Notes under the pieces: generated by a model
The model's database searches: none
What the model was told of the DNA's origin: nothing
Seen by the model: the letters and a program-made list of their open reading frames with translations, nothing else
Made by a program: the position numbers and the translations under genes
DNA from: a virus
Lineage: Duplodnaviria > Caudoviricetes
Virus record (IMG/VR): IMGVR_UViG_3300045962_000005
Location: 1 to 60,770 of that record
Length of the DNA stretch: 60,770 bases
Strand: one strand, 5' to 3'
In this document: positions 8,090 through 25,533 of the stretch, in pieces
Position numbering within the stretch: the first letter of the stretch is position 1
Layout of the letters: each line of letters begins with the position of its first letter

Positions 8090-8102
8090 TCTTCACATTC
8101 AC

Positions 8103-10721: not shown

Positions 10722-10746
10722 TTTTTTCTCCTAGGCTCGTTACGAA

Positions 10747-10767
10747 TGATGTATTAAGTATACATCA
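10747..10767. promoter_or_regulatory. Putative operator, inverted repeat TGATGTAT-N5-ATACATCA
   Basis: Perfect 8-bp inverted repeat overlapping the -10 and start site of the leftward promoter. Confidence 0.55.
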
Positions 10768-10784
10768 CTTTTATAATATAGCAA
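10757..10784 (-). promoter_or_regulatory. Leftward sigma70-type promoter
   Basis: TTGCTA-16 bp-TATACT just upstream of the RHH gene SD. Confidence 0.6.
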
Positions 10785-10944
10785 GAAAAAATATAAAATG
10801 GTGTCAGTAAAGGGCTAAGACGTCTGTCGAAAAGATGAAACTCCGCTATCAGCGAAGGGTGTATACATCACTATGAAAAGTTACGGTTGCGATGAGGGCG
10901 ATACGCTACTATCACCCATAGGGTGCCGATGGTGCCCATACCCC

Positions 10945-10973
10945 TTGACTGTATGCCTACGTTGTGAGATAAT
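10945..10973 (+). promoter_or_regulatory. Early sigma70-type promoter
   Basis: TTGACT-17 bp-GATAAT with TG extension. Confidence 0.7.
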
Positions 10974-11034
10974 ATGTTTACTGATTAGGACATGGGGTCT
11001 TAATCAGATATTTACTTAACTGAGGGATCAGAAC

Positions 11035-11475
11035 ATGAATATCAGAGAAACGATATTAAAAGAAATCGACCGCAACTGCAATAGAGTTGCGTCTTTAAAT
11101 AACGAAATTAAAGCTTGGACTGTCGTAAATGTAGACGCATACCAAGCGCTCATGGACGAGTTTACGGCTGTTGCCGATGAATTGAAAGCAAGCGGGCTGG
11201 TCACATGGACGTACGTCCACTTGTCTATGACAGGTACACCGACAATAGTCCTATCGGCAGATATAGATAAGTCAAGATTCAATGAAGTGGTGGACGTAGT
11301 AACTGAATTAGACCAGTATAGTGGTCGCTTCTCCAATTCATTCGAGCTGGCAGGGATACCAGTGAGATTCAGAATAGAGGCACCTGTTCCACAAGAGGAC
11401 GTTGATTTCCTTGAATCACTGGGTAAAGTCAAGACAATAACGGAAACACGTAAAGTAATGACCTGTAGTATTTAA
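11035..11475 (+). CDS. Early hypothetical protein
   Basis: 146 aa, GAGGG SD, downstream of a promoter. Confidence 0.7.
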   Translation: MNIRETILKEIDRNCNRVASLNNEIKAWTVVNVDAYQALMDEFTAVADELKASGLVTWTYVHLSMTGTPTIVLSADIDKSRFNEVVDVVTELDQYSGRFSNSFELAGIPVRFRIEAPVPQEDVDFLESLGKVKTITETRKVMTCSI

Positions 11476-11515
11476 TCCCTCAGAGGTGAGGCGCCCCGGC
11501 GCCGAGCCTCGCCCT

Positions 11516-11535
11516 TACTATCATAACTACTATCA
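11516..11535 (+). repeat. TACTATCATAACTACTATCA, copy 1 of 3
   Basis: Exact 20-mer also at 12521 and 12565. Confidence 0.9.
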
Positions 11536-11554
11536 CCGCCGTATGCCATAGGCC

Positions 11555-11582
11555 TTGCAATAGTGTGTGGATGCGGTATAAT
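11555..11582 (+). promoter_or_regulatory. Early sigma70-type promoter
   Basis: TTGCAA-16 bp-TATAAT. Confidence 0.65.
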
Positions 11583-11612
11583 GGGCACATGTCATCGCAC
11601 AAGGCGATGCAC

Positions 11613-11628
11613 TTCTAACCGGTTAGAA
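11613..11628. repeat. 16-bp dyad, copy 1 (TTCTAACCGGTTAGAA)
   Basis: Perfect palindrome, central variant. Confidence 0.9.
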
Positions 11629-11670
11629 CCTGTTAGAGGATATTTATTTATATGTATGGAGATACAGACA

Positions 11671-12453
11671 ATGGAAACATTAAACGACGCAAAACAAAAA
11701 GAGCTGGTAAAATTAATCAAGAGCGTAGATTCAAAGGAAAGTTCAGCAGTGAACGCCGCCGATAAAGTCGCAGATTTTCTGATTACCGAAGTTTACGACG
11801 CAACAAGACCAGCAGTGAAAGAAGCGGATTTTATTATGTCGTTCGCTAAGTCACTCTCAGACGATAACAAGATAGTCTTGAAATACAGTAAAAATGTCTG
11901 GTCAAAGATCAAACATCAAGTCAGTATCGCGGTACTTATTCAGGCAAAGCCAAACGCAGTAGTGGATTTTACCATCAACGAGCGCGGCAAGTCTAAGACT
12001 TTCACCATGACGCCGGAAGAATTAAAAACCGCTGGAGTTAAGCAAAAAGCGGCTGCAGCTGCACAGATAAGAAAAGAACTGGGCACCAGCGACGGCAGAG
12101 CCGGAAACAAAAGAGCGCCCCAAACACCGGCGGCACCAGTAACACCGGATACCATCAAGACACCGGCGGCAACTGAAACAACAAAGAAAACCACCGGCAG
12201 GCGTCAACCTAAAAACTATGAGATGCAAGTTAAAGATGCGCTATTGTTGGTAGGCGACGCCGACGAGTTCATTGACGCGCTCGTAGTGTACAGGGATAAG
12301 ATAAAATCGGCGGCTAATCGTAGAGGATACATAATCACCATAGCTGAAAAGAGCGCTGTCGTAAAGGCCCAGAAGAAAGCACCGGCTAAGAAAACAACCA
12401 CTAGACGAGCACCAAGAAAGCCGGTTGCACCAGCGCCATCAGCAAGCGCGTAG
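11671..12453 (+). CDS. Early protein with basic Lys/Ala/Pro-rich tail (possible DNA-binding)
   Basis: Start moved to ATG 11671 (GGAG SD), 260 aa. C-terminus KKAPAKKTTTRRAPRKP. Confidence 0.7.
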   Translation: METLNDAKQKELVKLIKSVDSKESSAVNAADKVADFLITEVYDATRPAVKEADFIMSFAKSLSDDNKIVLKYSKNVWSKIKHQVSIAVLIQAKPNAVVDFTINERGKSKTFTMTPEELKTAGVKQKAAAAAQIRKELGTSDGRAGNKRAPQTPAAPVTPDTIKTPAATETTKKTTGRRQPKNYEMQVKDALLLVGDADEFIDALVVYRDKIKSAANRRGYIITIAEKSAVVKAQKKAPAKKTTTRRAPRKPVAPAPSASA

Positions 12454-12469
12454 TTCTAACGCGTTAGAA
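12454..12469. repeat. 16-bp dyad, copy 2 (TTCTAACGCGTTAGAA)
   Basis: Immediately after the stop codon; extends to 18 bp with a G..C pair. Confidence 0.95.
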
Positions 12470-12474
12470 CCTCG

Positions 12475-12502
12475 AAGCCTCGCAGAAATGCGAGGCTTTT
12501 TT
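12475..12502 (+). terminator. Rho-independent terminator
   Basis: AAGCCTCGCA-GAAA-TGCGAGGCTT followed by a T-run. Confidence 0.85.
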
Positions 12503-12520
12503 GTGCCTGAAAAAAGGCAC

Positions 12521-12584
12521 TACTATCATAACTACTATCATAGCGCCGTGTGTCACGGCCCCATTACTATCATAACTACTATCA
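12521..12584 (+). repeat. TACTATCATAACTACTATCA, copies 2 and 3
   Basis: Exact 20-mers at 12521-12540 and 12565-12584. Confidence 0.9.
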
Positions 12585-12610
12585 TGCCGCGCCGTGCTGC
12601 GATAGGCAAT

Positions 12611-12626
12611 TTCTAACGCGTTAGAA
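12611..12626. repeat. 16-bp dyad, copy 3
   Basis: Exact TTCTAACGCGTTAGAA. Confidence 0.95.
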
Positions 12627-12660
12627 CCGGCACAGTATGCCGTGCAGTCGTGTGAAAAAT

Positions 12661-13350
12661 GTCCAAAGCGAAAGTTTCGTAATTTAGCTATCTATTTTAG
12701 TATACACAACGTTGTGTGATGTATGCCTCCCTATCTATTTGTACAAGGCTACATAAAAACAGTGGACGCGCGTCCACTAATTATGTATGGCGTCGTGTAA
12801 CTGGACGTATGAAAATGGGGTAAAAGTGGTGTATGTGTATACTCCAGAGTATACTCCAGAGTATACATCATAGCCCTCTATGTATTTGTACATGGCTGTA
12901 TAGAAAAAGTGGGTTTCTGTCCACTAAGGTGGACGCAAGGTGGACGGAAAACGCCGAAATTGTACCGCAAACGCCTTGTGAAATTCCTTTAAAATCAGTG
13001 TTGTGTCACTTTTTGCGTCCACAGCGTCCACATACGCAATGGGATAAGCATATGAAATATATATATATATTAGTAGTAGCGTCCACCGTGGACGCAAAAA
13101 AAAAATCTACAAAGGGTCAAAATTTCAGATCGAGTAAGGAAGATCCCTACTCGTTTTTAAAAAAAAACCCAGCTCTACCCTGAAAATTGCGTCCATCTGT
13201 CCACAAATGCCTCAAAGCCAAGCCCAGCAAGGCCTACAGGCTGGACAGAACTTTTTTATTTGCGTCCACTAGTCTGGACGCTCGTCCACCTTTTTTACAC
13301 AGCCTTGTACAAATACACACAGGGGGAGTATACTACAGAGTATACACACC
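12661..13350. other. Putative replication origin (iteron-like repeat region)
   Basis: 17 GTCCA/TGGAC pentamers (12 full GTCCAC/GTGGAC) on both strands, (AT)n core near 13058-13070, A-tracts and long imperfect inverted flanks. Confidence 0.6.
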
Positions 13351-13369
13351 TAGACTCTCTCATCCTAGC

Positions 13370-13397
13370 TTGACATAGTGTTTAAAGAGCGTATAAT
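13370..13397 (+). promoter_or_regulatory. Early sigma70 promoter with consensus boxes
   Basis: TTGACA-16 bp-TATAAT. Confidence 0.8.
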
Positions 13398-13495
13398 GGT
13401 AAGTGAGATGTGGGAGATTGCATTCACTGAAGGACAAAATCTCATTTCTTAAATGTGCGTATTTATTACATGCCTATTTATATGCACGCTTATAG

Positions 13496-13511
13496 TTCTA
13501 ACGCGTTAGAA
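13496..13511. repeat. 16-bp dyad, copy 4
   Basis: Exact copy, in the leader of the gene at 13541. Confidence 0.95.
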
Positions 13512-13540
13512 ATTAACTTAACCTTAACAGGATATTTATT

Positions 13541-14014
13541 ATGGAACAACTACCCATAGACGAAAGGCCCAAGTACCTGTCAATAGCACTGACCACTGGG
13601 CAGAATAATTTTTTGCATACAGTCAATGCGAACTCGTTTACTTTCCTGAAGCACAGAGGGGTAACCTTTGCGTTGACAGAACGTAACTATTATTTCGACA
13701 CCAATAACAGCAAGCCACGCTACACCACCATGAAAACAACCAACTGTAGCTGGGATAAGAATTATGCTATCTATATACTAGTGCCTGAATACGACGTGTT
13801 TATACACGTGTCTACTGTATCAGTAGACAATGAGACAGAATACGAGCAGGTAACTGAAGCACTGGACGGAGCGCGAATGACTTATGCCAGTACATCTGAG
13901 CGGGCGATAGCGGGATTTATGCAAACTCTGCACTGGCTGGACGGCAGTAAGCCATTCACTAAGCCAAACACAGGCTATGATGTCGTATCACGCGCCAATG
14001 GCGCCAAATATTAA
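13541..14014 (+). CDS. Early hypothetical protein
   Basis: 157 aa, AGGA SD. Confidence 0.7.
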   Translation: MEQLPIDERPKYLSIALTTGQNNFLHTVNANSFTFLKHRGVTFALTERNYYFDTNNSKPRYTTMKTTNCSWDKNYAIYILVPEYDVFIHVSTVSVDNETEYEQVTEALDGARMTYASTSERAIAGFMQTLHWLDGSKPFTKPNTGYDVVSRANGAKY

Positions 14015-14024
14015 GGAGAAAAAA

Positions 14025-14477
14025 ATGAAAGTCATATTAAATAAATGCTACGGCGGGTATACATTATCGCATGATGCCAAAATGGAACTACTGAAAGTTA
14101 AACATACAGGGGCATACCCATATGTATGCTCATCAAACTACGATGGGAAAACAATTACATTGTTAGATATGCCATACAACAGTGAAAATGCAACCTATGG
14201 GCTGGATATTGTATATATGGAAGGGCCAATTGAAGAAACGCCGTGCGTTATGCACGAAGATGATTTTATGCAGGAAGCAAAAACAGCCAATGACATATTT
14301 TCGAGTACCGAAAGAGATGATCCTGATTTAGTTGCCGTAGTAGAAAGGCTGGGCGAACGGGCATCAGGTTCGTGTTCTAAATTGGTTGTCGTGGATATAG
14401 ACGATGATATACAAGACTACGAGATATCAGAGTACGACGGGTTTGAAACACTTCACGAAAAACATCGTAAGTGGTAA
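14025..14477 (+). CDS. Conserved phage hypothetical protein
   Basis: Start moved to ATG 14025 (AAGGAG SD). MKVILNKCYGGY...RDDPDLVAVVERLG...EYDG.E is a common phage early-protein pattern. Confidence 0.75.
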   Translation: MKVILNKCYGGYTLSHDAKMELLKVKHTGAYPYVCSSNYDGKTITLLDMPYNSENATYGLDIVYMEGPIEETPCVMHEDDFMQEAKTANDIFSSTERDDPDLVAVVERLGERASGSCSKLVVVDIDDDIQDYEISEYDGFETLHEKHRKW

Positions 14478-14572
14478 GAGTACTGAGCACGGCTACCAGA
14501 AGGTAAGCCGTAACTGCAATACATTAGTGCTGCTAACACTATGAATTATAAAACTAAACAGAGGACAAAGCA

Positions 14573-14806
14573 ATGCTACAGGAGCAAAATAATAAATTAA
14601 AACGTGCAAAAAGACTTGAGCGTAATAAAATAGAGCGTAGCAAGTCGCACGAAATTAAGAACAAGACGCACGCACGTCGTCCAGAGCAGTTCACTATGTC
14701 AGTGAAGGAATACGACATAGACTATTATGCAGAACATATTGATGCATATACCGATGGTGACGATTGGCGTACCTATATATTATACGCAGACGGGAGAACA
14801 GCCTAA
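14573..14806 (+). CDS. Small protein with basic N-terminus and acidic C-terminus
   Basis: 77 aa, GAGGA SD. Confidence 0.6.
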   Translation: MLQEQNNKLKRAKRLERNKIERSKSHEIKNKTHARRPEQFTMSVKEYDIDYYAEHIDAYTDGDDWRTYILYADGRTA

Positions 14807-14830
14807 TTACGTACGACAAAAGGAACTATT

Positions 14831-14859
14831 TTGACATACGCCTCACGGCGTGAGATAAT
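14831..14859 (+). promoter_or_regulatory. Early sigma70-type promoter
   Basis: TTGACA-17 bp-GATAAT with TG extension. Confidence 0.75.
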
Positions 14860-14899
14860 AGTAGAAATAGGGGCACTCCCCTAAACACTGCGTCGGGTA

Positions 14900-14915
14900 T
14901 TCTAACGCGTTAGAA
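14900..14915. repeat. 16-bp dyad, copy 5
   Basis: Exact copy; extends with an A..T pair; nested inside a CTGCGTCG/CGACGCAG stem. Confidence 0.95.
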
Positions 14916-14965
14916 TCTACACCAACTACTTCGACGCAGATATTTATTAATGACAGGAGAAAATT

Positions 14966-15985
14966 ATGTCACAGACACAACCACAACATACACCACTCGT
15001 ATCATCCACCATGGCGAAGGCTGATACATTGATTACAAGCGCACGGAATACCTTTTACCGGGCGAAGATAACTTTTACGATGCCACCACGCACTAAGAAA
15101 GACCGCAAGGCAGAGGCTGATGCGGAATCTATAAATAATGCCTATGGTGCCATCAAAGCGTCGCGTAACCTGTATGCTGCGCAGTTCATTAAACCGTTCG
15201 AGTCTATTGCCAGTAAGTGGCGTAAGCGTATTGCCTCGTTCGCGGTACTCATCGGTGAAGACCAGTGTATACACAAGGAATACATCATGCAGGTCATGGA
15301 GGAATATCAGGACGAGTGCCTACCGGAGTGGAACCACCAGAAAGTCATATTCGGCAATCACTACGCGGAAATACTCAGGCAGTCACAGCATGAACAGGGT
15401 GATTTGTTCGACCCGACGATTTATCCTGATGTAGCACAGGTAATAGACCAGTTCACTTGCACACTGGACATACGACCACTTGGCACGGTTCAGACAGAAA
15501 TGTTTGACGGGCTGGAAACAGCGATAGCTGATGAGGTAGCAGAGTCCATGAAAGCGACGATTATGCGCGATATAGAGAACTCACTGCGCAAGCCTGTAGA
15601 GACGCTAATGGAGAACCTGATGAACGTGCATCAGAAATTATCCAAGAGTATTAATACGCCGGAAGGGGTTAAGGCAACACCGCTGTACGAATCGTTGATG
15701 CTGAACTTAGAGGATATTGCCAATATGATGCCAGCACTGAACGTTACAAATAGTGCGTTTCTCAATGACATCGCGGCGAAGGCACGCAGGCTGATTGTAC
15801 CGATAGAAACGTTGCGGGTAAGCCAGACCGCTAGGGAGGAAACAGCGGAGAAGGCTGAGGCACTGCTGACTGAACTCAATGTGAATACGGACAATAATAA
15901 AAATGCCAACGACATTAAGGACAGGCGGGAGGCAGCCAAGGCGTCGGCTGAGGCTATACTGGCACAAATGAAGGGAATGTTCTAG
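14966..15985 (+). CDS. DUF3150-like helical protein
   Basis: 339 aa. The KKDRKA...G...ASRNL and LFDPTIYP patterns resemble proteins found next to phage AAA/VWA pairs. Confidence 0.55.
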   Translation: MSQTQPQHTPLVSSTMAKADTLITSARNTFYRAKITFTMPPRTKKDRKAEADAESINNAYGAIKASRNLYAAQFIKPFESIASKWRKRIASFAVLIGEDQCIHKEYIMQVMEEYQDECLPEWNHQKVIFGNHYAEILRQSQHEQGDLFDPTIYPDVAQVIDQFTCTLDIRPLGTVQTEMFDGLETAIADEVAESMKATIMRDIENSLRKPVETLMENLMNVHQKLSKSINTPEGVKATPLYESLMLNLEDIANMMPALNVTNSAFLNDIAAKARRLIVPIETLRVSQTAREETAEKAEALLTELNVNTDNNKNANDIKDRREAAKASAEAILAQMKGMF

Positions 15986-15993
15986 GAAGTTCT

Positions 15994-16021
15994 TTGACAT
16001 TATGCCCATGTGATGTATAAT
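15994..16021 (+). promoter_or_regulatory. Early sigma70 promoter with consensus boxes
   Basis: TTGACA-16 bp-TATAAT. Confidence 0.8.
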
Positions 16022-16129
16022 ATTACATAGATGGGTAACCATTTCCGTTGAGGTGTGAACACGCTCACTCCCCCTTGCCATATTTCTCACAGGTTACCAA
16101 TGCCAGTGGTAACCACTCAACGGCACAAC

Positions 16130-16145
16130 TTCTAACTCGTTAGAA
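16130..16145. repeat. 16-bp dyad, copy 6 (TTCTAACTCGTTAGAA)
   Basis: One central mismatch; extends with a C..G pair. Confidence 0.9.
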
Positions 16146-16174
16146 GATATTTATTAACAGCTCAGGAGGAAACC

Positions 16175-17188
16175 ATGAGTATTAAAATTAGTGCAGTACC
16201 AGATATAATCGTTTCATTGTATAACAATGAGCAAACGCGTCACCGTACCTTATTTTTAAAAGGTGCATCAGGTGTTGGTAAGTCAGACACCGTAAGGCAG
16301 GCTGCTGAAGTATTAGGCGTAGACCTGATTGACTTACGTTTAGCACAGCTTGACCCGACAGATTTAAAAGGGATACCGTATCCGGTGGATGGGGTTACCC
16401 AGTGGGCCGTACCGGGGTTTTTCCCTCAAGACCCTGAGTCTGCAGGGATATTATTCTTGGACGAAATTACGTCCGCACCTCCAGCGATACAGGCAGCTGG
16501 ATACCAGTTGGTTCTTGACCGTGCACTGGGGGATTATCAGTTGCCGGATGGGTGGATGATAATTGCTGCGGGTAACCGTACCTCTGACCGTGGCGTTACG
16601 TATCAAATGGCGGCGCCGTTACAGAACCGCGTGACGGAGCTGGACGTGGAGCATACGCTTGAAGGGATACTGGACTATGGTGCGGGTAATGGACTCGACC
16701 CTCGCGTTATGGCCTTTTTATCTGAACGTGCCGACTTGGTGCATAAATTTGGTAAAGAGGAATACGGCAAGCCGTTCCCTTCTCCGCGTGGTTGGTTCGC
16801 AGTGAGTCCGATACTGGACATGGACCTACCGCAGGCTTATAAACTTGACCTGATTATTGGGTCAGTGGGGCATGAAGCAGGGATAGCGTTCGAGGCGTTC
16901 TTACGGGTATGGGACAAGATGCCGTCCATCAGCAAGATACTGGCGGGTGAACCTGAGCAAGTGCCTACCGATTTAGGTACGTTGGCCTGTGTAACCATGG
17001 GCCTGTCCGCACGGCTCACCGCTAAAGGTATGGATAAGGCATGGGATTATCTCATGAGTATGCCACGGGAGATGTCGTTACTGGCTATTAAGTTAGCGTA
17101 TAAGCGCGACAAGTCATTAGCTCAGGCTAAAATGTTTGGTGAATGGGCGAGAAGTAATAAAGACCTGTTTAAAGAACTATTACAATAG
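16175..17188 (+). CDS. MoxR/dynein-related AAA+ ATPase
   Basis: Walker A GASGVGKS, Walker B LFLDE, AAGN sensor, LQNR arginine finger, SPRGW. Confidence 0.9.
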   Translation: MSIKISAVPDIIVSLYNNEQTRHRTLFLKGASGVGKSDTVRQAAEVLGVDLIDLRLAQLDPTDLKGIPYPVDGVTQWAVPGFFPQDPESAGILFLDEITSAPPAIQAAGYQLVLDRALGDYQLPDGWMIIAAGNRTSDRGVTYQMAAPLQNRVTELDVEHTLEGILDYGAGNGLDPRVMAFLSERADLVHKFGKEEYGKPFPSPRGWFAVSPILDMDLPQAYKLDLIIGSVGHEAGIAFEAFLRVWDKMPSISKILAGEPEQVPTDLGTLACVTMGLSARLTAKGMDKAWDYLMSMPREMSLLAIKLAYKRDKSLAQAKMFGEWARSNKDLFKELLQ

Positions 17189-17197
17189 GGGATTAAC

Positions 17198-18436
17198 ATG
17201 GATTTAGAACAACGACTGAATGACGTAGCCGCGCGTATGGTGCTGGCTGAACCGTTCCTTGCCAGTATCTTTGTGAAACTACCGCGTAAGGTAGTGGATT
17301 GGGGAACAGCAGCAACGAATGGTGAGGTATTTTACTTTTGCGACTCGTTCTGCAGTGACTTAAATGACAGTGAACTGATGTTTATTGCACTGCATGAAAC
17401 GGCGCATGTTGCGCTACAGCACTCTTGGCGCAGAGGTGACAGGGAACCGTCAATATATAATACCGCTTGTGATGCAGTGATTAACCCAGAGATAAAACGG
17501 CTACCGAGAAATTACCAGATGCCGGAGGGCGGTGTATTATTCCCTTGGGTAACTCAGGAGATGTCAGCGGAGGACGTGTACTCTATACTGCGTAAGCAGG
17601 CGAGTGAACAACCGGACTATCCGCAGTCTGGCAGTGGTCAGGGTAATGAAGGTGAACAATCGGGTCAGGGAGGTGCGTCGCGTCGGAAATCCCCGGCACA
17701 ACAGGGAGACGACGCAGACGGTGGGAAATCACCGGAAGAGCAGGCTGCTAATACTGGTGGTGGGGGTTGGGATGGTCAGGGTGACCTGATGGACTCTACG
17801 TCACCGGAGGCACAGGCTGATATAGAGGCAACGATTATTGCTAATGCCCGTATGTTTAAAGCAGCAGGTTCGAGTTCGGCCTTTGCGGACAGGGTAATTG
17901 ACGGTGCTAATACGCCACAGGTATCTTGGCCTGAACTACTGCGTCAGGTAATGACTTCTACATCTAAGGACGACTATTCTTGGAGGCGGGGCAACCGACG
18001 CTATACGCATCAGGGGTTATATCTTCCTTCATTATATACGGACTCAATGGGCGGGCTGGTGGTAGCCGTGGATACGTCGGGTTCCGTAGGGCAGGACGAG
18101 ATGAATCAGTTTGCTGCTGAAATCAATGCGATATTTGAAGACTGCAGGCCGGATTGGGTGGAGGTGATTTATTGCGATACTAATGTGAAACACCACGAAC
18201 GGTTTAACGAAGGGGATATTGTGGAGCTGCACGCAAAAGGTGGCGGTGGCACACGGTTCAGACCTGTATTTGACTACGTGGAAGAAATGCAGGAGAGAGT
18301 ATCCGCTATGGTTTTCTTCACTGACCTTATGGGTAATGTGCATGAGCTGGAGGAACCGGACTATCCGGTACTGTGGGGTCTGACCTATGGAAGCAAAGAG
18401 GCGCCTTTCGGTGAAACTGTGAGGATAGACGTATGA
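17198..18436 (+). CDS. DUF2201-type metallopeptidase-like plus VWA domain protein
   Basis: TAATNG, HETAH (HExxH), MIDAS DTSGS, GGGGT and FFTD motifs; adjacent to the AAA+ gene. Confidence 0.85.
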   Translation: MDLEQRLNDVAARMVLAEPFLASIFVKLPRKVVDWGTAATNGEVFYFCDSFCSDLNDSELMFIALHETAHVALQHSWRRGDREPSIYNTACDAVINPEIKRLPRNYQMPEGGVLFPWVTQEMSAEDVYSILRKQASEQPDYPQSGSGQGNEGEQSGQGGASRRKSPAQQGDDADGGKSPEEQAANTGGGGWDGQGDLMDSTSPEAQADIEATIIANARMFKAAGSSSAFADRVIDGANTPQVSWPELLRQVMTSTSKDDYSWRRGNRRYTHQGLYLPSLYTDSMGGLVVAVDTSGSVGQDEMNQFAAEINAIFEDCRPDWVEVIYCDTNVKHHERFNEGDIVELHAKGGGGTRFRPVFDYVEEMQERVSAMVFFTDLMGNVHELEEPDYPVLWGLTYGSKEAPFGETVRIDV

Positions 18437-18654
18437 ACTTCAGCGAGTTTTTATATCGCTTGTGGGTAGCTGAGACACTTCACTATTTTGGTGAGGTGTT
18501 ACCGATTAACGAGATAACCGCAGGCACACTAGAGCACCGCGTTGACTATAACGACCCGCCTATTGTTGACGTAGACGGCGATGCAATGCGGACATTTATA
18601 TTAACCTACGACATAGAGAGACTTATTTATGAGCAGAAGAACACATTTAACTGA
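18433..18654 (+). CDS. Hypothetical protein
   Basis: 73 aa, ATGA overlap. Confidence 0.55.
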   Translation: MNFSEFLYRLWVAETLHYFGEVLPINEITAGTLEHRVDYNDPPIVDVDGDAMRTFILTYDIERLIYEQKNTFN

Positions 18655-18919
18655 TGATAAGGGCAAGTTTGACCCGATGGCAGAAGTCTTAAAACGCGTG
18701 CGTCGCATCGAGACGCGAGTGATGAAAGGCTTTGAACAGCTTGGTGCTACTATCACGCACGAAGATGGGCGAATTATCATTGACCATGACAATGAAGTGA
18801 TAACCATCAAAACGATGGGTACAACTGTCGGAGAGATATTAACGGCGCTTGGCAATAACAAGGGCGAGTATTATGTCGTATACAACGACGTGGCACGTTG
18901 CATACTGAAAGTGCAATAA
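18629..18919 (+). CDS. Hypothetical protein
   Basis: 96 aa, in operon. Confidence 0.6.
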   Translation: MSRRTHLTDDKGKFDPMAEVLKRVRRIETRVMKGFEQLGATITHEDGRIIIDHDNEVITIKTMGTTVGEILTALGNNKGEYYVVYNDVARCILKVQ

Positions 18920-18931
18920 GGAGAGAGAATA

Positions 18932-19111
18932 ATGCATATTTTATTTGCGAAACCAAAAGAAATTGTTTTCACTTTAGACGCCTTTAGGGGAGAAGCACTA
19001 TCAAATCTGGTAGAAACATTGGGCCTTTCGGATGAAGACCTTGAAGGTTTAGATGAATTTTATTTAACAGTAACAGCAGTTGAAACTGTGTACCTTGAAA
19101 AAGATGAGTAG
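18932..19111 (+). CDS. Small acidic hypothetical protein (59 aa)
   Basis: Below track cutoff; AAGGAG SD; MHILFAKPKEIVFTLDAF... Confidence 0.55.
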   Translation: MHILFAKPKEIVFTLDAFRGEALSNLVETLGLSDEDLEGLDEFYLTVTAVETVYLEKDE

Positions 19112-19379
19112 TATAGCGCTGCGGAAAGAAACTATAGACTTGCTGAGAAAGGCAATCAGGGAGCTGGGCGAAGATAAAGCGTACAACTTATTCTCCGAGG
19201 CTATGGCGCAGGTTAAATCAGAACGCGTGAAACCGGTTACTGCGGTGCCACTTCTGAGTCCTAATCAGGTTGACCTGTGTAAACGGCTAACATCTAAATA
19301 CGGGTATACGCCGCATGAGTTGTCCAGAAAACTGCAGGTGGATAAACAAACGATAATTAACGTGCTGGAGGGGGCATAA
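19104..19379 (+). CDS. Putative helix-turn-helix protein
   Basis: Start moved to ATG 19104. C-terminal GYTPHELSRKLQVDKQTIINVL is HTH-like. Confidence 0.55.
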   Translation: MSSIALRKETIDLLRKAIRELGEDKAYNLFSEAMAQVKSERVKPVTAVPLLSPNQVDLCKRLTSKYGYTPHELSRKLQVDKQTIINVLEGA

Positions 19380-21217
19380 TGGCAGATATTAATTTTTTTG
19401 CAACGATAGATTTTGAGACGTACTATGACAGGGAATTTTCTCTGTCTAAAATGCAGACCGACGAGTATGTATTAGACTCACGATTTGAAATTATAGGCGT
19501 GGGGTGTAAAGTTGGAAACGGTGAAATAGAGTTTTTCAGCGGTAGCCATCAGGAAGTATGCGATTGGTTAGTGACACGGTTTAACTGGGCCACGACACCA
19601 GTATGTTTTCATAATGCACAGTTCGACGGGTTTATATGCACGCAGATATTAAAACTAAAACCGTATATCATACTGGATACGATATCAATGGCGCGTATGG
19701 TTTATCCTTGGTGGAAATCCTATTCACTGAAAAACGTTTCTAACGCGTTAGAAATTGGCAGCAAGGGTACGGAAGTAGTTACCTTCATGGGGTATCAGCT
19801 ACAGGACTTTACTGAAGATGCATTGCGTCGTTACGGGGAATACTGTAAAAATGACGTAGGGTTAACGCATACAATAGCAGAGATGTTGATACCTAAAATA
19901 CCATTATTAGAAATAATGATGATTGATATGACTGTCCGAATGTTTACCGAGCCGAGGATAAAAGGGGATACGGCTAGGCTAGTGGCCTACCACAACCAAG
20001 AGGTGAGCAGGAAAATAGAACTGGTCAATGCGGCTAATGCCGATAAAGAAGACTTGATGTCTAATGAAAAGTTTGCGGATAAACTGCGCGACTTAGGGAT
20101 TAAACCACCTATGAAGATATCAAAACGTACTGGTAAATGGGCCTTTGCCTTTGCTAAGAATGACCGTCAGTTTACTGACCTGTTAAATTGCGGAGTGCCG
20201 GAAGTGGAAGCGCTTGTATCCGCGCGAATAGGGGTAAAAAGTACAATTTCAGAAACCCGTGCGCTGCGTATGATTCATGCTAGTCACCGAGGTTTACTAC
20301 CCGTACACTTAAACCACTGGGGCGCTAAAACTACAGGCAGGCTATCTGGTGGTAATAAAATGAACTACCAGAATATACCGTCCAGAGGTTTAGGCAAGGA
20401 GCTACGTAAATGCATGGTAGCACCGGAAGGGTATAAGATAGTGGTTGGGGATTCCTCCAACATAGAGCTGCGGGTAGTTATGGCTTGTGCTGGCGATAAG
20501 GAGAGCTTAGCCCTGCTGTATAACGGTGATGATTTATACTGTGACTTTGCCAGTAAGCTGCATGGCAGGGTCATAACTAAGGAGGACAAGAAAGAACGTA
20601 TGCTAGGTAAAGTAGCTATGCTGTCACTTCAATACGGTGCTGGTTCAAGTACGTTCAGGCATATGGTACGAATGATGGCAGGTATAGTTATTGATGAGGA
20701 CGAAGCGCAAAGCATCGTAAACATATATAGAAATATACACCCTGAGATTAGAGACTTATGGGATAGGATGGAGTATATACTACGGGCTGTGCAAAATGGC
20801 GAAGAACTGGTGCCATTGGATAAAAATGCATGGGTTCTGACAACAGAAGATGGTTTCGCTATACCCGGATTACCGGGAGTGTGCTACAATAATTTACGTA
20901 GAGGCAGCGATGGCTCTTGGGAGTACCGGATGGGGGATAATTACGTGCATATTTACGGCGGTAAAGTCGTAGAAAATTTATGCCAACACATAGCTAGGCA
21001 CATTGTAATGTGGCAAACGCTAAGGGTACATAGGAAATATCCAGTTTCTATAAGTGTGCACGATGAGATGGTCTGCGTTGTTCCTGAAGAAGAGGCAGAG
21101 GCATGTAAAGCGTATATGCTTGAATCTCTGCGAAAGGCACCTGTTTGGTGCGAAGGTGAAATACCACTAGAAGGAGAGGTAGCTTATGGCGATAGCTATG
21201 GCGAAGCAAAAATATAG
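19379..21217 (+). CDS. polA: DNA polymerase, family A, with 3'-5' exonuclease domain
   Basis: Exo motifs DFETY, HNAQFD, YCKND; polymerase motifs TTGRLS, DSSNIELR, RMLGKVAMLSLQYG, VHDE. Confidence 0.95.
   Translation: MADINFFATIDFETYYDREFSLSKMQTDEYVLDSRFEIIGVGCKVGNGEIEFFSGSHQEVCDWLVTRFNWATTPVCFHNAQFDGFICTQILKLKPYIILDTISMARMVYPWWKSYSLKNVSNALEIGSKGTEVVTFMGYQLQDFTEDALRRYGEYCKNDVGLTHTIAEMLIPKIPLLEIMMIDMTVRMFTEPRIKGDTARLVAYHNQEVSRKIELVNAANADKEDLMSNEKFADKLRDLGIKPPMKISKRTGKWAFAFAKNDRQFTDLLNCGVPEVEALVSARIGVKSTISETRALRMIHASHRGLLPVHLNHWGAKTTGRLSGGNKMNYQNIPSRGLGKELRKCMVAPEGYKIVVGDSSNIELRVVMACAGDKESLALLYNGDDLYCDFASKLHGRVITKEDKKERMLGKVAMLSLQYGAGSSTFRHMVRMMAGIVIDEDEAQSIVNIYRNIHPEIRDLWDRMEYILRAVQNGEELVPLDKNAWVLTTEDGFAIPGLPGVCYNNLRRGSDGSWEYRMGDNYVHIYGGKVVENLCQHIARHIVMWQTLRVHRKYPVSISVHDEMVCVVPEEEAEACKAYMLESLRKAPVWCEGEIPLEGEVAYGDSYGEAKI
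19738..19753. repeat. 16-bp dyad, copy 7, inside the polymerase gene
   Basis: Exact copy; extends with a T..A pair; overlaps codons V-S-N-A-L-E. Confidence 0.95.
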
Positions 21218-21264
21218 GGAAAAATACGTAGTTACTTCATGCGACATACTAAAAGGAAGATGCT

Positions 21265-21924
21265 ATGCAAAATAAATTTCCGCTCAGTTACAGCAGGTTA
21301 AGCTGTTTTAAACAGTGCCCTGCGAAATTTGAGTACTTGTATATTACTAAGTCAGTGCAGGATGCTGGCAATGAGCATACGCGGTTCGGAGAAAGGGTTC
21401 ATAAATCACTGCAGTCGTATGGTGAAACAGCTGACCCAGCTGAGCTAACTAATGAGACAGTAGACTTTAAAAGGATACTGGACAAAGTACTTGGCTATTC
21501 AGGCAAACACTACTACGAGCATAAAATGGCGATAGATGAAGACTGTATGCCTGTAGATTGGTTCAGTTCTGATGCGTGGTTTCGAGGCATAGCGGACGTA
21601 TTAATAGTAGATGGGGATAGAGCGACATGTATCGATTGGAAAACAGGAAAAAAGAGAGAAGACATGACGCAGCTGATGCTGTTCTCTTGCATGGTTATGT
21701 TTACTTTCCCTCAGATAAATACGGTACAAAGTGCATTCGTCTGGTTAAAATCCGAAGAAACAACGACGTGCACAGTAGACCGTGAAGCAGCTGAAAAGTT
21801 TTGGGTTAGGATGCAGAGTCAGTTTGATAAAGTGCAGGAGGCGGTGGACGTTGGCGTTTTCACTGCTAAGACGAGTGCCTTATGTAACTGGTGCCCTGCA
21901 AATAAAGTGTGTATATACAGATGA
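21265..21924 (+). CDS. PD-(D/E)XK (Cas4/RecB-like) exonuclease
   Basis: LSYS...CP, G..VH, GIAD...IDWKTGK and C-terminal C..C.....C. Confidence 0.85.
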   Translation: MQNKFPLSYSRLSCFKQCPAKFEYLYITKSVQDAGNEHTRFGERVHKSLQSYGETADPAELTNETVDFKRILDKVLGYSGKHYYEHKMAIDEDCMPVDWFSSDAWFRGIADVLIVDGDRATCIDWKTGKKREDMTQLMLFSCMVMFTFPQINTVQSAFVWLKSEETTTCTVDREAAEKFWVRMQSQFDKVQEAVDVGVFTAKTSALCNWCPANKVCIYR

Positions 21925-22208
21925 AGAACGAAGGTGACGTTAAGAAAGAGGTTAAAAAAATACTTAACGCCATTGATAACTGCTGGTGGTATATGCCAGT
22001 GCAAACAGGGTATGGGGTAAAAGGCATACCGGATTTTATATGCAGCGTTAGGGGTACGCTAGTAGGCATAGAAACGAAGTTTGGAAACAACAAAGAATCG
22101 CCTTGGCAAAAACGGCAAGGTGAAGGAATACTAAACTCAGGTGGTATTTATGTAGTTATTAACAATAAAAACATAGGTACGCTAACTGAGATATTAACTA
22201 ATATATAG
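21921..22208 (+). CDS. VRR-NUC nuclease / Holliday junction resolvase-like protein
   Basis: Start moved to ATG 21921. E..VK, GIPDF, IETK and Q motifs. Confidence 0.85.
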   Translation: MKNEGDVKKEVKKILNAIDNCWWYMPVQTGYGVKGIPDFICSVRGTLVGIETKFGNNKESPWQKRQGEGILNSGGIYVVINNKNIGTLTEILTNI

Positions 22209-22218
22209 GAGAAGTAAA

Positions 22219-22938
22219 ATGGCAACAGTTAGAATGACAAAAACGCTAAAGCAAGAAATTTTAAGTGCTATAGACGCTAAGTACAATACGGTTATAGATT
22301 CATATAAACCCAGCAAGGACATTATAGACAGAGCTACGGAACTTGCTCATAAAGCGATAGAGGAAGACGTGGTAAAAGTGAAAGAAATTGAATCAGAGCT
22401 GCAAGGACTTTTAGACAGACATACACGCTACATAAAAGACGTCAGTGCTGACCTTTTTGCAAGTAGAATATTTAATAGGCACTATGGTTATATTCCTGTT
22501 ACGTTGTCGGAAAAAGAAGATACAGTAAACTTACTAAGTTTTAATATGCCTTTAGATAGGTATGAAAAATCTAATAGCTATGTTTATACAACTACTGGTA
22601 TAGGTAATCGTATTCGTTTAGAAGATGAAGACCTAATTAAACTGGTAAAGCCGTTAAGAACTGAAGCTAATAGTATTAATAACGCTAGATACGAAATAAA
22701 ACAGCACATAAGAGAGATTATGATAACGACAACAACACTAAAGCAGTTGTTAGATGTCGTGCCTAAAGTTGTAGAGTTCGTGCCATCGTATGCTATTTCA
22801 GCTAGGAACAGCAAAGAAAAACGCTACGCTCCTAAAAAAGAAAAAGAAACTATCGATGAAACTATGGCTAATAGCCTTAGTAAGTCCTTAGATGAAGTAT
22901 CTACGCACGCTGATGCAATAAAAATACTGGGAGAATAA
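22219..22938 (+). CDS. Nmad5-like phage protein (tentative)
   Basis: N-terminal VRMTK.LK.EI and C-terminal TLKQLL...P...FVP resemble nucleotide-modification-associated domain 5. Confidence 0.45.
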   Translation: MATVRMTKTLKQEILSAIDAKYNTVIDSYKPSKDIIDRATELAHKAIEEDVVKVKEIESELQGLLDRHTRYIKDVSADLFASRIFNRHYGYIPVTLSEKEDTVNLLSFNMPLDRYEKSNSYVYTTTGIGNRIRLEDEDLIKLVKPLRTEANSINNARYEIKQHIREIMITTTTLKQLLDVVPKVVEFVPSYAISARNSKEKRYAPKKEKETIDETMANSLSKSLDEVSTHADAIKILGE

Positions 22939-22939
22939 T

Positions 22940-24484
22940 ATGTTTGTAGTACCTTCAAAACGGAAATTAGTCTTCAGGGCTAACGACCACAACAAGGTAT
23001 CTGCATTACTGCCAACAGCAAAAGCATTCAACTACGATGGCGCTCCTGCCGTCGCGGTTGACCACAGTCAGGATGCAGTACGAATACTTAGGAACATAGG
23101 GTATAGAAATGTACCCTCACCTATCCGATATTACTATGATTGGTCAGGGCTATATAAACCAATGCCGCACCAGATAGACACCGCAGAATTCATGTCGATG
23201 AACAGCCGTGCTCTATGTCTAAACGCACCGGGTACGGGTAAAACGGTTAGTGTGTTGTGGGCTGCCGACCATATGCTGCAGGAGGGCATAATAAAACGGA
23301 TTCTTATTATAGCGCCGTTATCAACACTCAAGCCCGTATGGGGAAATGAGATAATGCGCCACTTTATGCACTTGAATTTTGTTATTGTAACGGGTGACCG
23401 TAAGCGTAAAATGAAACTGGCTAGTGACAAAGACGCAGACGTTGTTATTATAAACCACGATGGTTTTACCACTATGCCAAGTATGTTTTATGACTGCGAC
23501 TTAATCATATACGATGAAGCAACGGCACTAAAAACGCCAACGTCTATACGATATAAAACCATGTTTAAATACATGCGAACGCATAGGCCGAGGCTATGGT
23601 TGTTGACGGGTACACCCATATCGCAGAACCCTACTGATGCGTGGACACTATCTAAGCTGTGTGAGTCACCAAAAGTACCAGCCACTTTTACGCACTTCAA
23701 AGAATTAACGATGCGTAAGGTAAGTCAGTTCAAGTGGATACCAAGGCCAGAAGCGCTGAGCATCTGTAAGGAGGTAATGCAGCCGTCTATACGTTTTTCT
23801 TTAGACGAGTGTAAAGACCTACCTGACACGGTGTACGTTGACAGAGGGTGTGAACTAACGAAGATGCAGAGTGTTGCATTTGACGAGATGCTGGAGAAAG
23901 CAGTTGTCGCGGGTACAGATATTGAAGCGGCGAACGCGGCAGTACTTTTCTCTAAGCTAGTACAAATTAGTTGTGGCGTTGCGTACGATACGGACGGTGA
24001 CAGGGTTCATTTTGACGATGCCGGAAGGGTGGATGCACTAACTGAAATCATCGATGAAATTGGTGATAAGGTCATTATTTTTGTGCCGTTAAGAGGTGTT
24101 CAGGATAGGCTGGAGACGCTGCTGGGTAAGCATTACGACGTTGCGTCAGTACATGGCGGCGTGAGCAAGAATGAGCGCAACAAGATATTTGACATATTCC
24201 AGAATAGTGATAAAATAAAGGTATTAATAGCGCACCCTAAAGTTGCAGCACACGGGCTAACATTAACCCGTTCACGTTGCATCATCTGGTATGCTCCGAT
24301 ATATAGCCTAGAACAATACGAGCAGGCAAACGCACGTATACGCAGGTTAAACACTCAGGGCAGAACAGTTATTTACCATATATACGCTACTAAATTTGAG
24401 AAGACACTGTACGGACGTTTAAAGAATAAGCAAAAGATTCTGAACGACTTCCTTGCGTTAGTGCGTGGAACAAATGAGGACTGA
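22940..24484 (+). CDS. SNF2-family helicase
   Basis: APGTGKT, YDEA, LTGTP, HGLTL and QANARIRR motifs. Confidence 0.9.
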   Translation: MFVVPSKRKLVFRANDHNKVSALLPTAKAFNYDGAPAVAVDHSQDAVRILRNIGYRNVPSPIRYYYDWSGLYKPMPHQIDTAEFMSMNSRALCLNAPGTGKTVSVLWAADHMLQEGIIKRILIIAPLSTLKPVWGNEIMRHFMHLNFVIVTGDRKRKMKLASDKDADVVIINHDGFTTMPSMFYDCDLIIYDEATALKTPTSIRYKTMFKYMRTHRPRLWLLTGTPISQNPTDAWTLSKLCESPKVPATFTHFKELTMRKVSQFKWIPRPEALSICKEVMQPSIRFSLDECKDLPDTVYVDRGCELTKMQSVAFDEMLEKAVVAGTDIEAANAAVLFSKLVQISCGVAYDTDGDRVHFDDAGRVDALTEIIDEIGDKVIIFVPLRGVQDRLETLLGKHYDVASVHGGVSKNERNKIFDIFQNSDKIKVLIAHPKVAAHGLTLTRSRCIIWYAPIYSLEQYEQANARIRRLNTQGRTVIYHIYATKFEKTLYGRLKNKQKILNDFLALVRGTNED

Positions 24485-24485
24485 C

Positions 24486-24501
24486 TTCTAACGCGTTAGA
24501 A
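24486..24501. repeat. 16-bp dyad, copy 8
   Basis: Exact copy, 1 nt after the helicase stop; extends with a C..G pair; followed by ATATTTATT. Confidence 0.95.
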
Positions 24502-24530
24502 GATATTTATTTACAACAAAGGAGAACATT

Positions 24531-24932
24531 ATGGACTTAGAAAGAGCCATTAAAGAGTATTTGAATTGCCGTAAGCAAATAGAAACTATTGATGCAGAGG
24601 CTAGGAAACAGAAAGCTGGTGTACGTATCATCATGGGTAAGCTTGAGCAGTGGATAACTAACACAGCTAAAGAACAAGGGCTTAAAGATATCCCAACAGA
24701 AGCAGGAACAGGATACTGGAGTACACATAAAAAATGCAGTGTTGCAGACCAAGAAGTTTTCTTTAAGTATGTAAAAGAAAATGAGCGGTGGGATTTAATA
24801 GAGAAGCGTGCGTCTAAGGTTGCCGTTGGCAATCAGATAGAAGCGACGGGTGAAGCTGTGCCGGGGGTTAACTTTTCTCAGGTTAGCGTTTTTACTGTAC
24901 GTGCTAACAACAAAGATAAGGAGGCCGCATGA
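24531..24932 (+). CDS. Conserved phage hypothetical protein (coiled-coil N-terminus)
   Basis: 133 aa, AAGGAG SD. Confidence 0.7.
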   Translation: MDLERAIKEYLNCRKQIETIDAEARKQKAGVRIIMGKLEQWITNTAKEQGLKDIPTEAGTGYWSTHKKCSVADQEVFFKYVKENERWDLIEKRASKVAVGNQIEATGEAVPGVNFSQVSVFTVRANNKDKEAA

Positions 24933-25180
24933 AAGTCATAGACATGCCAAAACGTGTCGATGGCAACGAAGCAACTAGGGCACGTATCGCACACATTATG
25001 ACGCATCAGTTGCATGGTGTAGCTATGTCTATAAACCTGTATGAAGCATTAGTAGCGCACGGTAAGCTGGATAACCGTCGCAGTAACAGGGTAGAGCAGA
25101 AACAGTACGAGGCTATTGTTAGTAGGTTTAGAAAGACACTGGACAATTTTGAAGAGTTTATAAAGGAGGAAGTGTTATGA
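24929..25180 (+). CDS. Hypothetical protein
   Basis: 83 aa, GGAGG SD, ATGA overlap. Confidence 0.6.
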   Translation: MKVIDMPKRVDGNEATRARIAHIMTHQLHGVAMSINLYEALVAHGKLDNRRSNRVEQKQYEAIVSRFRKTLDNFEEFIKEEVL

Positions 25181-25470
25181 AAAAAGGTGACACAGTTATG
25201 ACTCCAGACGGTGTAGGCATTGTCTGCACAGTAGACGAATACAGAAACTATGTTCTAGTAAGTTTTAGCAAGAATGTCTATGGTTCTGGTAGATTAAGAG
25301 ATGAACAGGACTACGCTTTTAAGTATGGCATCAATACGATTGAGGCGTATAACCCTGAAGAAGAGGCTGAGTTCGCAAGCGACTACGTACCTAGCTATCT
25401 GCGTAAACCAGAAACTAAAGAGGAAAACGTATATGAGGGTGTGGAGGAACCTAAAGACTATGAAGGTTGA
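25177..25470 (+). CDS. Hypothetical protein
   Basis: 97 aa, GGAGG SD, ATGA overlap. Confidence 0.6.
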   Translation: MKKGDTVMTPDGVGIVCTVDEYRNYVLVSFSKNVYGSGRLRDEQDYAFKYGINTIEAYNPEEEAEFASDYVPSYLRKPETKEENVYEGVEEPKDYEG

Positions 25471-25533
25471 ATTACTAGGTATTCTAGTAATTATTTTATT
25501 TATAATTGGGCATAATATATAGGAGAATTTTTT

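Follow-up and report, generated by a model that had tools for sequence, protein, structure and literature searches.

What reads a short palindrome that recurs along one arm of a phage genome is the question raised by IMGVR_UViG_3300045962_000005, a complete virus record of 60,770 bp (Caudoviricetes) that was analyzed in full and is called the window here; a DNA run from a sediment metagenome is its likely source. The element is a 16-bp dyad of two 7-bp arms around a 2-bp center, TTCTAACNNGTTAGAA (TTCTAAC-NN-GTTAGAA). It is confined to the rightward arm (~10.8–29.4 kb), which codes for a MoxR-type AAA ATPase, a DUF2201/VWA metallopeptidase-like protein, a family-A DNA polymerase, a PD-(D/E)XK nuclease, an Nmad5 protein, an SNF2 helicase and a DUF927 primase-helicase. 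Leftward genes fill ~42 kb, and encode the large terminase, a portal/adaptor protein, an SU10-type adaptor and a 2267-aa protein. The gene content of the two arms marks the genome as podophage-like. Pfam scans of the 46 predicted proteins, with small open reading frames (ORFs) covered non-exhaustively, revealed neither an integrase nor a CI-type repressor family, and judged by its missing integrase the phage looks lytic.

A pattern scan of the whole record returned exactly eight matches to the dyad, compared with none in 100 shuffled sequences. Allowing up to two mismatches added no further copy in the window (shuffles gave a mean of 0.42 and a maximum of 3), and isolated half-sites occur at chance level only. 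All eight copies are found between 11.6 and 24.5 kb, with none among the leftward genes. An earlier, model-made reading of the same DNA (the original prediction) had listed these eight copies, six of them exact and the variation limited to the central 2 nt, had seen none in the ~42 kb late arm, and had proposed an exact and 1–2 mismatch scan of the genome; the scan bears out each point, the center being GC in six copies, CG at 11613 and TC at 16130. The feature is real, non-random and, as described below, clade-wide.

None of the eight dyads is among the 26 terminator-like sites called, and their stems are A/T-rich, so they do not have the form of intrinsic terminators. A scan of positions 10500–30000 against Rfam 15 (E ≤ 1) gave five weak matches, all below the gathering score and none over a dyad. 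The exact window dyad occurs in five stretches of viral contigs, each with a single copy, in 40 stretches of genome contigs, single-copy apart from one inverted-terminal pair, and in at least 120 stretches of metagenome contigs. When 160 dyad-bearing loci were compared with the window by blastn and tblastn, none was alike, and the 13 two-copy loci among them proved to be tandem or terminal repeats of unrelated DNA. Among the matches listed there is thus no host genome or known regulon that uses the window dyad, and no close relative with the same dyad.

Relatives were collected by an ATPase-alignment scan of viral contigs, from which 80 loci were kept, and the clade was taken as the window plus the ten loci whose MoxR-type ATPase is at least 45% identical (11 genomes). 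A dispersed 16-bp palindrome of the same 7+2+7 design is present in all ten of these loci, and in none of the 70 loci with an ATPase identity of 43% or less. The arms differ from those of the window. Seven loci carry TAATCCC-NN-GGGATTA (2–11 copies each), two carry (T/A/C)ATTCCC-NN-GGGAAT(A/T) (6 and 8 copies), and the viral contig G001 carries (T/A)ATTTTCGCGAAAAT(A/T) (TATTTTC) in 13 copies, of which eight are exact, two have one mismatch and three have two; reversed-pattern controls gave no matches. G001 (63.9 kb, 64% GC, polymerase 47% identical) has no copy of the window-type dyad, and all of its own dyads lie in its rightward arm (1.3–29.4 kb). In the two longest group-B records (37 and 41 kb), every copy is within the first 8.8 kb. 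Including the window there are four arm types in the clade, one per genome, without a single cross-type copy. As the type A dyad is found in genomes of 47–62% GC, the reader is more likely to be phage-borne than host-borne.

Positions are kept across the types: a dyad stands before the DUF3150-like gene, before the ATPase gene and around the gene for a basic protein (Table 1). The independent assemblies of G001, L020 and L022 start 128–457 nt upstream of the basic-protein gene, which suggests that the physical left end of the clade genomes is located there, in which case the dyad arm would enter the cell first. The original prediction had offered a signal on the first-injected DNA as one option, and the starts of these assemblies would fit such an order of entry.

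The nearest cultured kin, judged by the polymerase, are Rhizobium phages of the RHph_TM3_14A group (34% identity) and the Pseudomonas phages Rollin and KPP25 (30–32%). RHph_TM3_14A, a more distant relative, has 31 copies of a dyad of its own, (G)TTACC-N5-6-GGTAA(C), on both arms of the 50 kb examined; 14 of the 31 are intergenic or at gene edges, compared with 12% of non-coding sequence. In several of these copies, the right arm and center form the Shine-Dalgarno sequence of the next gene. No dispersed dyad was found in the 50 kb examined of each of KPP25 and Rollin. The TAATCCC group has no close cultured phage (37% identity for the best-matching ATPase), and the rightward arm of the window gave no DNA-level match to phage records by megablast. 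A literature search on KPP25 and the virion RNA polymerase, the names of the Rhizobium phages, stoperators, start-associated sequences and PeSL cassettes returned nothing that covers the clade itself.

The copies are closely tied to the ends of genes. A dyad was counted as start-linked if an ORF of at least 60 aa with a Shine-Dalgarno-supported start began no more than 62 nt downstream, and as abutting a stop if the stop of the upstream ORF ended at −10 to +3 of the dyad. Across the 11 genomes, 49 of 73 copies are start-linked (background 17.6%, p ~1e-20) and 30 abut an upstream stop (background 4.6%, p ~3e-21). In the TAATCCC group, the first three bases of the dyad are often the stop codon itself, and the Shine-Dalgarno sequence follows 0–1 nt after the dyad or after an ACTTA-rich leader. 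Promoters were called as sigma-70-like matches scored out of 12, and only near-consensus ones are used in the argument; overall, such matches are not enriched in the arm (44, compared with 40 ± 6.7 in shuffles). Five of the eight window copies are 31–270 nt past promoters scoring 10–12, which agrees with the original prediction that copies lie downstream of promoters, and it was also right to place others directly after stop codons (12454 and 24486) and one inside a gene (19738). Of the ten promoters in the relatives that score at least 11/12, six are followed by a dyad at a distance of 44–70 nt. Other settings occur as well: two dyads of L021 end 3–5 nt upstream of a −35 box, two of G001 are within genes (7853 and 26905), and the G001 copy at 29431 lies past the last gene of the arm.

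Table 1. Dyad copies, associated promoters and leaders, and candidate reader genes in the window.
Feature	Position	Strand	Remarks
Dyad copy 1	11613–11628		Center CG; 31 nt past the −10 box of promoter 11555–11582; in the leader of the basic-protein gene; extra GTTAGA half-site at 11632
Dyad copy 2	12454–12469		Starts 0 nt past the TAG codon that ends the basic-protein gene; a GC-rich stem and T-run come next, at ~12475–12502
Dyad copy 3	12611–12626		Non-coding control region; 25 nt past a tandem ACTACTATCA motif
Dyad copy 4	13496–13511		99 nt past 12/12 promoter 13370–13397; GATATTTATT 19 nt on, abutting ATG 13541
Dyad copy 5	14900–14915		41 nt past promoter 14831–14859; ahead of the DUF3150-like gene; same-position dyad in all relatives
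Dyad copy 6	16130–16145		Center TC; 109 nt past 12/12 promoter 15994–16021; abuts GATATTTATT; ahead of the MoxR-type ATPase gene; same-position dyad in relatives
Dyad copy 7	19738–19753		Within the family-A DNA polymerase gene; codes for SNALE in a variable stretch, the sole frame that the palindrome leaves open
Dyad copy 8	24486–24501		1 nt after the TGA stop of the SNF2 helicase gene; 270 nt past promoter 24189–24216; abuts GATATTTATT; ahead of the gene at 24531
Near-consensus sigma-70-like promoters ahead of dyads	11555–11582, 13370–13397, 14831–14859, 15994–16021, 24189–24216	+	Scores 12/12 (two), 11/12 (two) and 10/12 (one)
Leader motif GATATTTATT	11639–11648, 13531, 14939, 16146, 24502	+	Sole five exact copies in the window
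Variant leader motif GATATTTACT	11007	+	Sixth leader, for the first rightward gene (11035–11475)
Stable non-dyad hairpin	10981–11007	+	−14 kcal/mol, one G.T pair; between promoter 10945–10973 and GATATTTACT, in the place of a dyad
Basic protein, 260 aa	11671–12453	+	pI 9.9; no Pfam or PHROG family; gene flanked by dyads; leading candidate reader
Helix-turn-helix (HTH) protein, 99 aa	19080–19379	+	C-terminal resolvase-type HTH; relatives in G001, L019, L020 and L022; second candidate reader
Ribbon-helix-helix (RHH) protein, 56 aa	10551–10721	−	RHH_1, E 2.5e-5; first leftward gene; candidate reader; in 2 of 7 records searched
96-aa protein	18629–18919	+	Family in all 11 genomes; at the end of the DUF3150-like/ATPase/VWA block

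A second element, overlooked in the original prediction, stands downstream of five of the eight dyads. The motif GATATTTATT trails them by 0, 0, 10, 19 or 23 nt, and these are the same five copies that have a promoter ahead. Each copy stands 0–22 nt ahead of a start codon and 5' of the ribosome site, and the motif, rich in A/U, probably serves as a translation-leader element in its own right.

Whether the dyad is read as duplex DNA or as RNA can be judged from the way it varies. Within each genome the arms are invariant and the center changes: over the 73 copies it is AT in 27, GC in 19, AC in 16, GT in 7, TC in 2, and CG and AA in one each. Fixed arms around a varying 2-bp center are the pattern of a dimer operator rather than of an RNA hairpin read through its loop. 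From one type to another, the two arms differ in step at positions 2, 3, 5 and 6, with no one-sided (wobble) cell in the seven core pairs, while T4, C7, G10 and A13 are the same in all 73 copies. The nine mismatched pairs seen in imperfect copies include no sense-strand G.T, five C.A and four others, and a hand count of the mismatches in the rightward arm of the Rhizobium phage (10 G.T, 12 C.A and 10 other) likewise shows no enrichment of G.T. Folded as RNA, the window copies reach −2.4 to −6.9 kcal/mol with a stem of 6–7 bp, and G001 copies just −0.7 and −0.9 kcal/mol, no better than shuffles; G001, at 64% GC, uses arms of A and T only, though a stable stem would be easily possible. The half-sites behave independently: the outer pair is unpaired in 13 of 62 rows, and L020 has hybrid A|B half-site copies.

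The original prediction had also noted that the next flanking bases pair in five of the eight copies, and took this to suggest selection on structure as well as sequence. The pairs themselves are there (G-C, A-T, C-G, T-A and C-G), weakly beyond chance by a binomial estimate (~0.03). Across the clade, 19 of 62 distinct rows have a Watson-Crick flanking pair and 10 more have U-G, and on this count the argument for structure selection from flanking pairs is not upheld.

The reading that we place first, tentatively, is that the dyad is a duplex-DNA operator for a co-evolving phage protein, with a stoperator-like action; a roadblock operator was one of the options in the original prediction and is the one that leads here. 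A phage-encoded DNA-binding protein of two-fold symmetry would bind the dyad duplex, its specificity having co-evolved with the sites. Since the sites are in transcribed leaders and stop-start gaps, mostly past host-type promoters, the protein, once bound, would chiefly stand in the way of host RNA polymerase during elongation, and the few copies beside a −35 box would work as ordinary operators. One protein would thereby control the entire rightward arm, as a shut-off or a dosage setting. What the sequences show is the sites, the conservation of their design and positions across the clade, and the single type in each genome; we infer that the reader is a protein, that it reads DNA and blocks transcription, and which genes may encode it. 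The copies that are within genes, ahead of a −35 box or past the last gene make no sense as leader hairpins. By analogy, the pattern of positions matches that given for L5-type operators and stoperators in the accessible text of PMC9283540, where these are dispersed, lineage-specific short sites of Cluster A mycobacteriophages, found at promoters and mainly in short gaps near starts and stops, and one phage protein is thought to stop both initiation and elongation. The likeness extends to the many dispersed copies in promoter regions and short intergenic gaps, eight in the window and 73 in the 11 genomes. L5 stoperators, as far as that text describes them, are 13-mers that lack symmetry, follow the direction of transcription and are bound by a monomer; they belong to temperate actinobacteriophages, and their reader is the immunity repressor. 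The dyads, by contrast, are perfect 16-bp palindromes on one arm of an apparently lytic, podophage-like genome.

Several points weigh against this operator. A symmetric roadblock would be awkward in DNA that possibly enters the cell by transcription, and the prophage-silencing logic of stoperators is not directly transferable because the phage looks lytic. The dyad is often 0–1 nt from the Shine-Dalgarno sequence, and the 49 of 73 copies close to a start are what would be expected of a translational element at the RNA level, although tiny intergenic gaps would also explain the tight coupling to the ribosome site. At the first rightward gene, a stable non-dyad hairpin takes the dyad's place upstream of the same leader motif, and in four of six cases the G of the leader motif is the last paired base of the hairpin, including an outer 8-bp inverted repeat (14888–14895/14933–14940) that encloses the dyad at 14900; this substitution and the pairing of the motif's G argue for an RNA module. 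Finally, the basic, 96-aa and DUF3150-like proteins gave no match to a DNA-binding family, and the RHH and HTH proteins, which have such folds, are not in all relatives (2 of 7 records searched and 4 of the 10 other loci, respectively).

Our best guess for the gene of the operator-binding protein is that of the basic protein, then that of the HTH protein. The basic protein, with lysine- and alanine-rich tails, belongs to a positional family that is present in all six loci reaching its region, where its gene is always the first of the arm and is flanked by dyads; no relatives were found by a related-locus search or by tblastn against phages. Four families occur in all 11 genomes (the DUF3150-like protein, the ATPase, the VWA protein and the 96-aa protein). 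PDB profile searches with the basic and 96-aa proteins gave nothing under E 0.03, and their Atlas neighbors are unnamed viral clusters. The structural neighbors of the 96-aa protein (HicA- or RRM-like) have TM-scores of 0.5 or less and are a lead only. With L019 as the test case, residue columns following dyad type as against phylogeny numbered 9:4, 5:4, 11:11 and 1:3 in four families, which does not single out a reader. The original prediction had proposed four partners. Among these the basic protein stays a candidate by its presence in relatives, the HTH protein is retained where it occurs but is not clade-wide, the RHH protein loses ground by its rarity, and the basic 77-aa ORF is absent from the families that span at least three of the 11 genomes. 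A sigma-70 region 2 domain was searched for and not found, the control having worked. In the group-B relative L022, a 68-aa stand-alone protein (3325–3531) resembles sigma-70 region 4 (PF04545, E 8.9e-5, just under the cut-off), and its gene immediately precedes the dyad that stands ahead of the DUF3150-like gene.

The main rival, a serious one though on balance less likely, is an element that works as RNA, a short stem-loop within 5' leaders and between cistrons that a phage-encoded RNA-binding protein or endoribonuclease would recognize. Its effect would be on translation, on the processing of transcripts into stable monocistronic units, or on attenuation at the U-rich GAUAUUUAUU that comes next. 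The ties to ribosome sites, starts and stops given above, including the spacing of 0–1 nt to the Shine-Dalgarno sequence, would suit it, as would the presence of every copy in transcribed, same-direction arms, the five window copies in leaders past promoters, and the leader motif that directly follows a hairpin in four of six cases, among them the non-dyad G.T hairpin and the outer 8-bp stem. RNase III sites in the early region of T7 are placed at gene junctions in a similar way; they are imperfect duplexes of ~20 bp or more, whereas the dyad stem is just 6–7 bp. The variation speaks the other way. Stems that are fixed while the loop varies within a genome are the reverse of known hairpin-protein pairs, the core pairs and mismatches show no wobble, the Rhizobium phage has no excess of G.T, the G001 hairpins barely fold, no Rfam family covers a dyad, and some copies are in genes or ahead of a −35 box. 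A nut/put-like antitermination hairpin, another option in the original prediction, is disfavored on the same grounds of a varying center, invariant arms, missing wobble variants and the weak G001 version. Like the dyads, the nut sites of lambda lie past early promoters at variable distance, and the gene that comes next after the first site codes for a basic protein; the nut hairpins are read through a conserved loop, once per operon. Here five of the eight dyads follow promoters by 31–270 nt, and the other three lie between a stop and a terminator, in non-coding DNA and in a gene; unlike nut, the loop varies (seven centers), the arms are fixed and the copies outnumber the promoters.

A more specific proposal, and a somewhat more doubtful one than the RNA hairpin, is one-protein, many-sites control, in which a reader of an unnamed family, perhaps the basic protein, would recognize a 14–16-bp palindrome at nearly every early junction and would have been re-targeted at least four times by paired changes of the arms. 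If the RNA form were bound or cut, this would amount to a natural, sequence-specific system for junction processing or translation gating in a lytic phage, with four orthogonal specificities that could serve as tools.

It is improbable that the dyads have no dedicated reader and are parts of copy-and-paste cassettes (stops, hairpin, leader and ribosome site) that mark gene boundaries and offer microhomology for gene swaps. Such cassettes would resemble the PeSL cassettes of T4-type phages, which the accessible text of PMC4122927 describes as composites of an early promoter and a stem-loop at early-gene boundaries that act as recombination points. The dyads are at gene boundaries, the copies at 16130 and 24486 have ~36 nt in common, nearly letter for letter and with the leader included, accessory genes between dyads differ among relatives, and one indel of the clade, a 558-bp HNH-type ORF in L021, is exactly at a dyad relative to L023 and L024. 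However, 16 bases are very short for homologous exchange, the flanks of most copies are unrelated to one another, and five pairwise comparisons gave a single breakpoint at a dyad. Copies that are identical within a genome yet differ between relatives would also require concerted change, which is far easier with a co-evolving reader. PeSL cassettes, as that text has them, are promoter-terminator composites; five of the eight window dyads have a promoter ahead, and the 16-bp palindrome is itself neither promoter nor terminator.

Slightly less probable still is that the dyads are extruded as hairpin promoters for a virion-delivered phage RNA polymerase, as in N4, with the 2267-aa protein as the enzyme. 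N4-type promoters are a few hairpins at the leading end that give the direction of transcription, and phage polymerases typically have phage-specific promoter sequences, as the one dyad type per genome would be. Copies stand directly upstream of genes in an arm that probably enters first, and the 2267-aa protein matches a PHROG named virion RNA polymerase (E 1.8e-24). That match covers residues 89–536 against positions 206–642 of a 3406-position profile, outside the polymerase part; the 3233-aa counterpart in G001 lacks it, and the two proteins share only the last ~500 residues. The 2267-aa protein has no detectable polymerase domain and no sequence match to solved structures, and residues 540–1760 have no homologue. 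Near-consensus host-type promoters already stand ahead of genes, a perfect palindrome has no direction, 8–13 copies are spread over 13–28 kb, and the copy at 12454 would fire into a terminator. The 2267-aa protein itself (29757–36560, minus strand), the central part of which was compared with 5.8 billion proteins, is probably an ejected internal virion protein with a fast-evolving center.

Dispersed palindromes of ~16 bp are also the format of ParB and KorB sites, which occur in several copies near and far from promoters and have one dimeric, gene-silencing reader, and a 7+2+7 palindrome fits the ParB type. Sites of no regulatory role, used for loading a partition or condensing protein, for stopping or pacing stepwise DNA entry, or as targets of a nicking or modifying enzyme, would suit the probable first entry of the dyad arm (three assemblies start just upstream of the basic-protein gene), the lysine- and alanine-rich tails of the basic protein, like those of nucleoid proteins, and the encoded Nmad5, but are as improbable as the N4-like promoters, given that the strong tie to start and stop codons is unexpected for such sites, no partition ATPase and no sign of a plasmid or lysogenic lifestyle are in evidence, and ParB_N (PF02195) gave no match at E ≤ 10 in the two complete genomes, the window and its closest relative G001 (control positive in 11 of 14 genomes), which weakens the parS-like option of the original prediction.

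The closest analogues of the dyad system, besides the stoperators, are the SAS motifs (start-associated sequences) and the ESAS motifs (their extended form) of Cluster K mycobacteriophages. In the accessible text of PMC3203893 and PMC12699233, SAS is a conserved motif just upstream of starts, and a subset has an inverted repeat immediately upstream; the consensus of the ESAS repeat differs by subcluster, and its positions are kept before the same gene families. According to the same text, an mRNA hairpin is poorly supported, and as of 2025 the function still awaited verification. ESAS resembles the dyads in its lineage-specific consensus. As these sources describe them, ESAS repeats are imperfect, 17 bp long and have spacers of 4–13 bp, whereas the dyads have perfect 7-bp arms and a fixed 2-bp center; SAS includes the ribosome site, whereas GATATTTATT is on its 5' side, and both the sequence and the phage lineage are unrelated. 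By analogy, the dyad system shares the logic of stoperators and SAS/ESAS, not their form. The claim of the original prediction for an undescribed system is therefore fair for this clade, but the kind has known analogues.

Dispersed, lineage-specific sites at gene junctions are well known only in actinobacteriophages, where stoperators are understood and SAS/ESAS are unexplained after 14 years. The same logic in an unrelated, apparently lytic and uncultured podophage clade suggests a general way to bring an entire arm under the control of one factor. The clade offers clean palindromes, conserved positions and four specificities. Its four site types, one to each genome, make a natural experiment for finding the reader and its specificity code, and they would also supply orthogonal pairs of site and protein. 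The cultured RHph_TM3_14A, with its own dyads, offers an entry point for laboratory work.

Some further observations concern the surroundings of the dyads. In L021, the 558-bp insertion occupies 7890–8450, has its own 11/12 promoter, and its HNH-type ORF holds another dyad copy at 8255. In G001, three dyads (1269–1300, 2648–2685 and 4424–4461) abut GC-rich hairpins, and a terminator-like site, on one or the other strand, takes its T-run from the T-rich or A-rich arm of the dyad. A 9–10-mer, (C)TACTATCA, is found in the window at 10906–10914, 11516–11535, 12519–12541 and 12563–12585, and in the relatives G001 (~1150 and ~1250), L021 (~800), L022 (~1175) and L027 (~2520). It is kept across the clade whatever the dyad type, often as a tandem pair one helical turn apart, and is always 12–35 nt ahead of a dyad copy, close to where the rightward arm begins. 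In the window it also stands ~20 nt ahead of promoter 11555, measured to the −35 box. Its reader is probably a conserved component, e.g., a host factor, the terminase or a replication initiator.

Two other non-coding regions of the window and two of its genes deserve mention. Besides the Nmad5 nucleotide-modification-associated protein (22219–22938, plus strand), the genome encodes a ThyX-like thymidylate synthase (9189–10070, minus strand), and the two proteins hint at modified bases in the phage DNA. A non-coding field at 12760–13340 contains ~15 copies of GCGTCCAC / GTGGACGC in both orientations, an (AT)n run, GTATACTCCAGAGTATAC repeats and TTGTACAAGG-type dyads. The field has the look of a replication origin or of another set of operators, and the 116-aa ORF within it (12833–13183) is probably not a gene. 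Further along the arm, a promoter-like sequence (26429–26457) is followed by a hairpin with a 13-bp stem (26498–26527) and a T-rich stretch, immediately ahead of the DUF927 primase gene with its TTG start, so that 26429–26560 has a leader arrangement like that of a terminator or attenuator, without a dyad.

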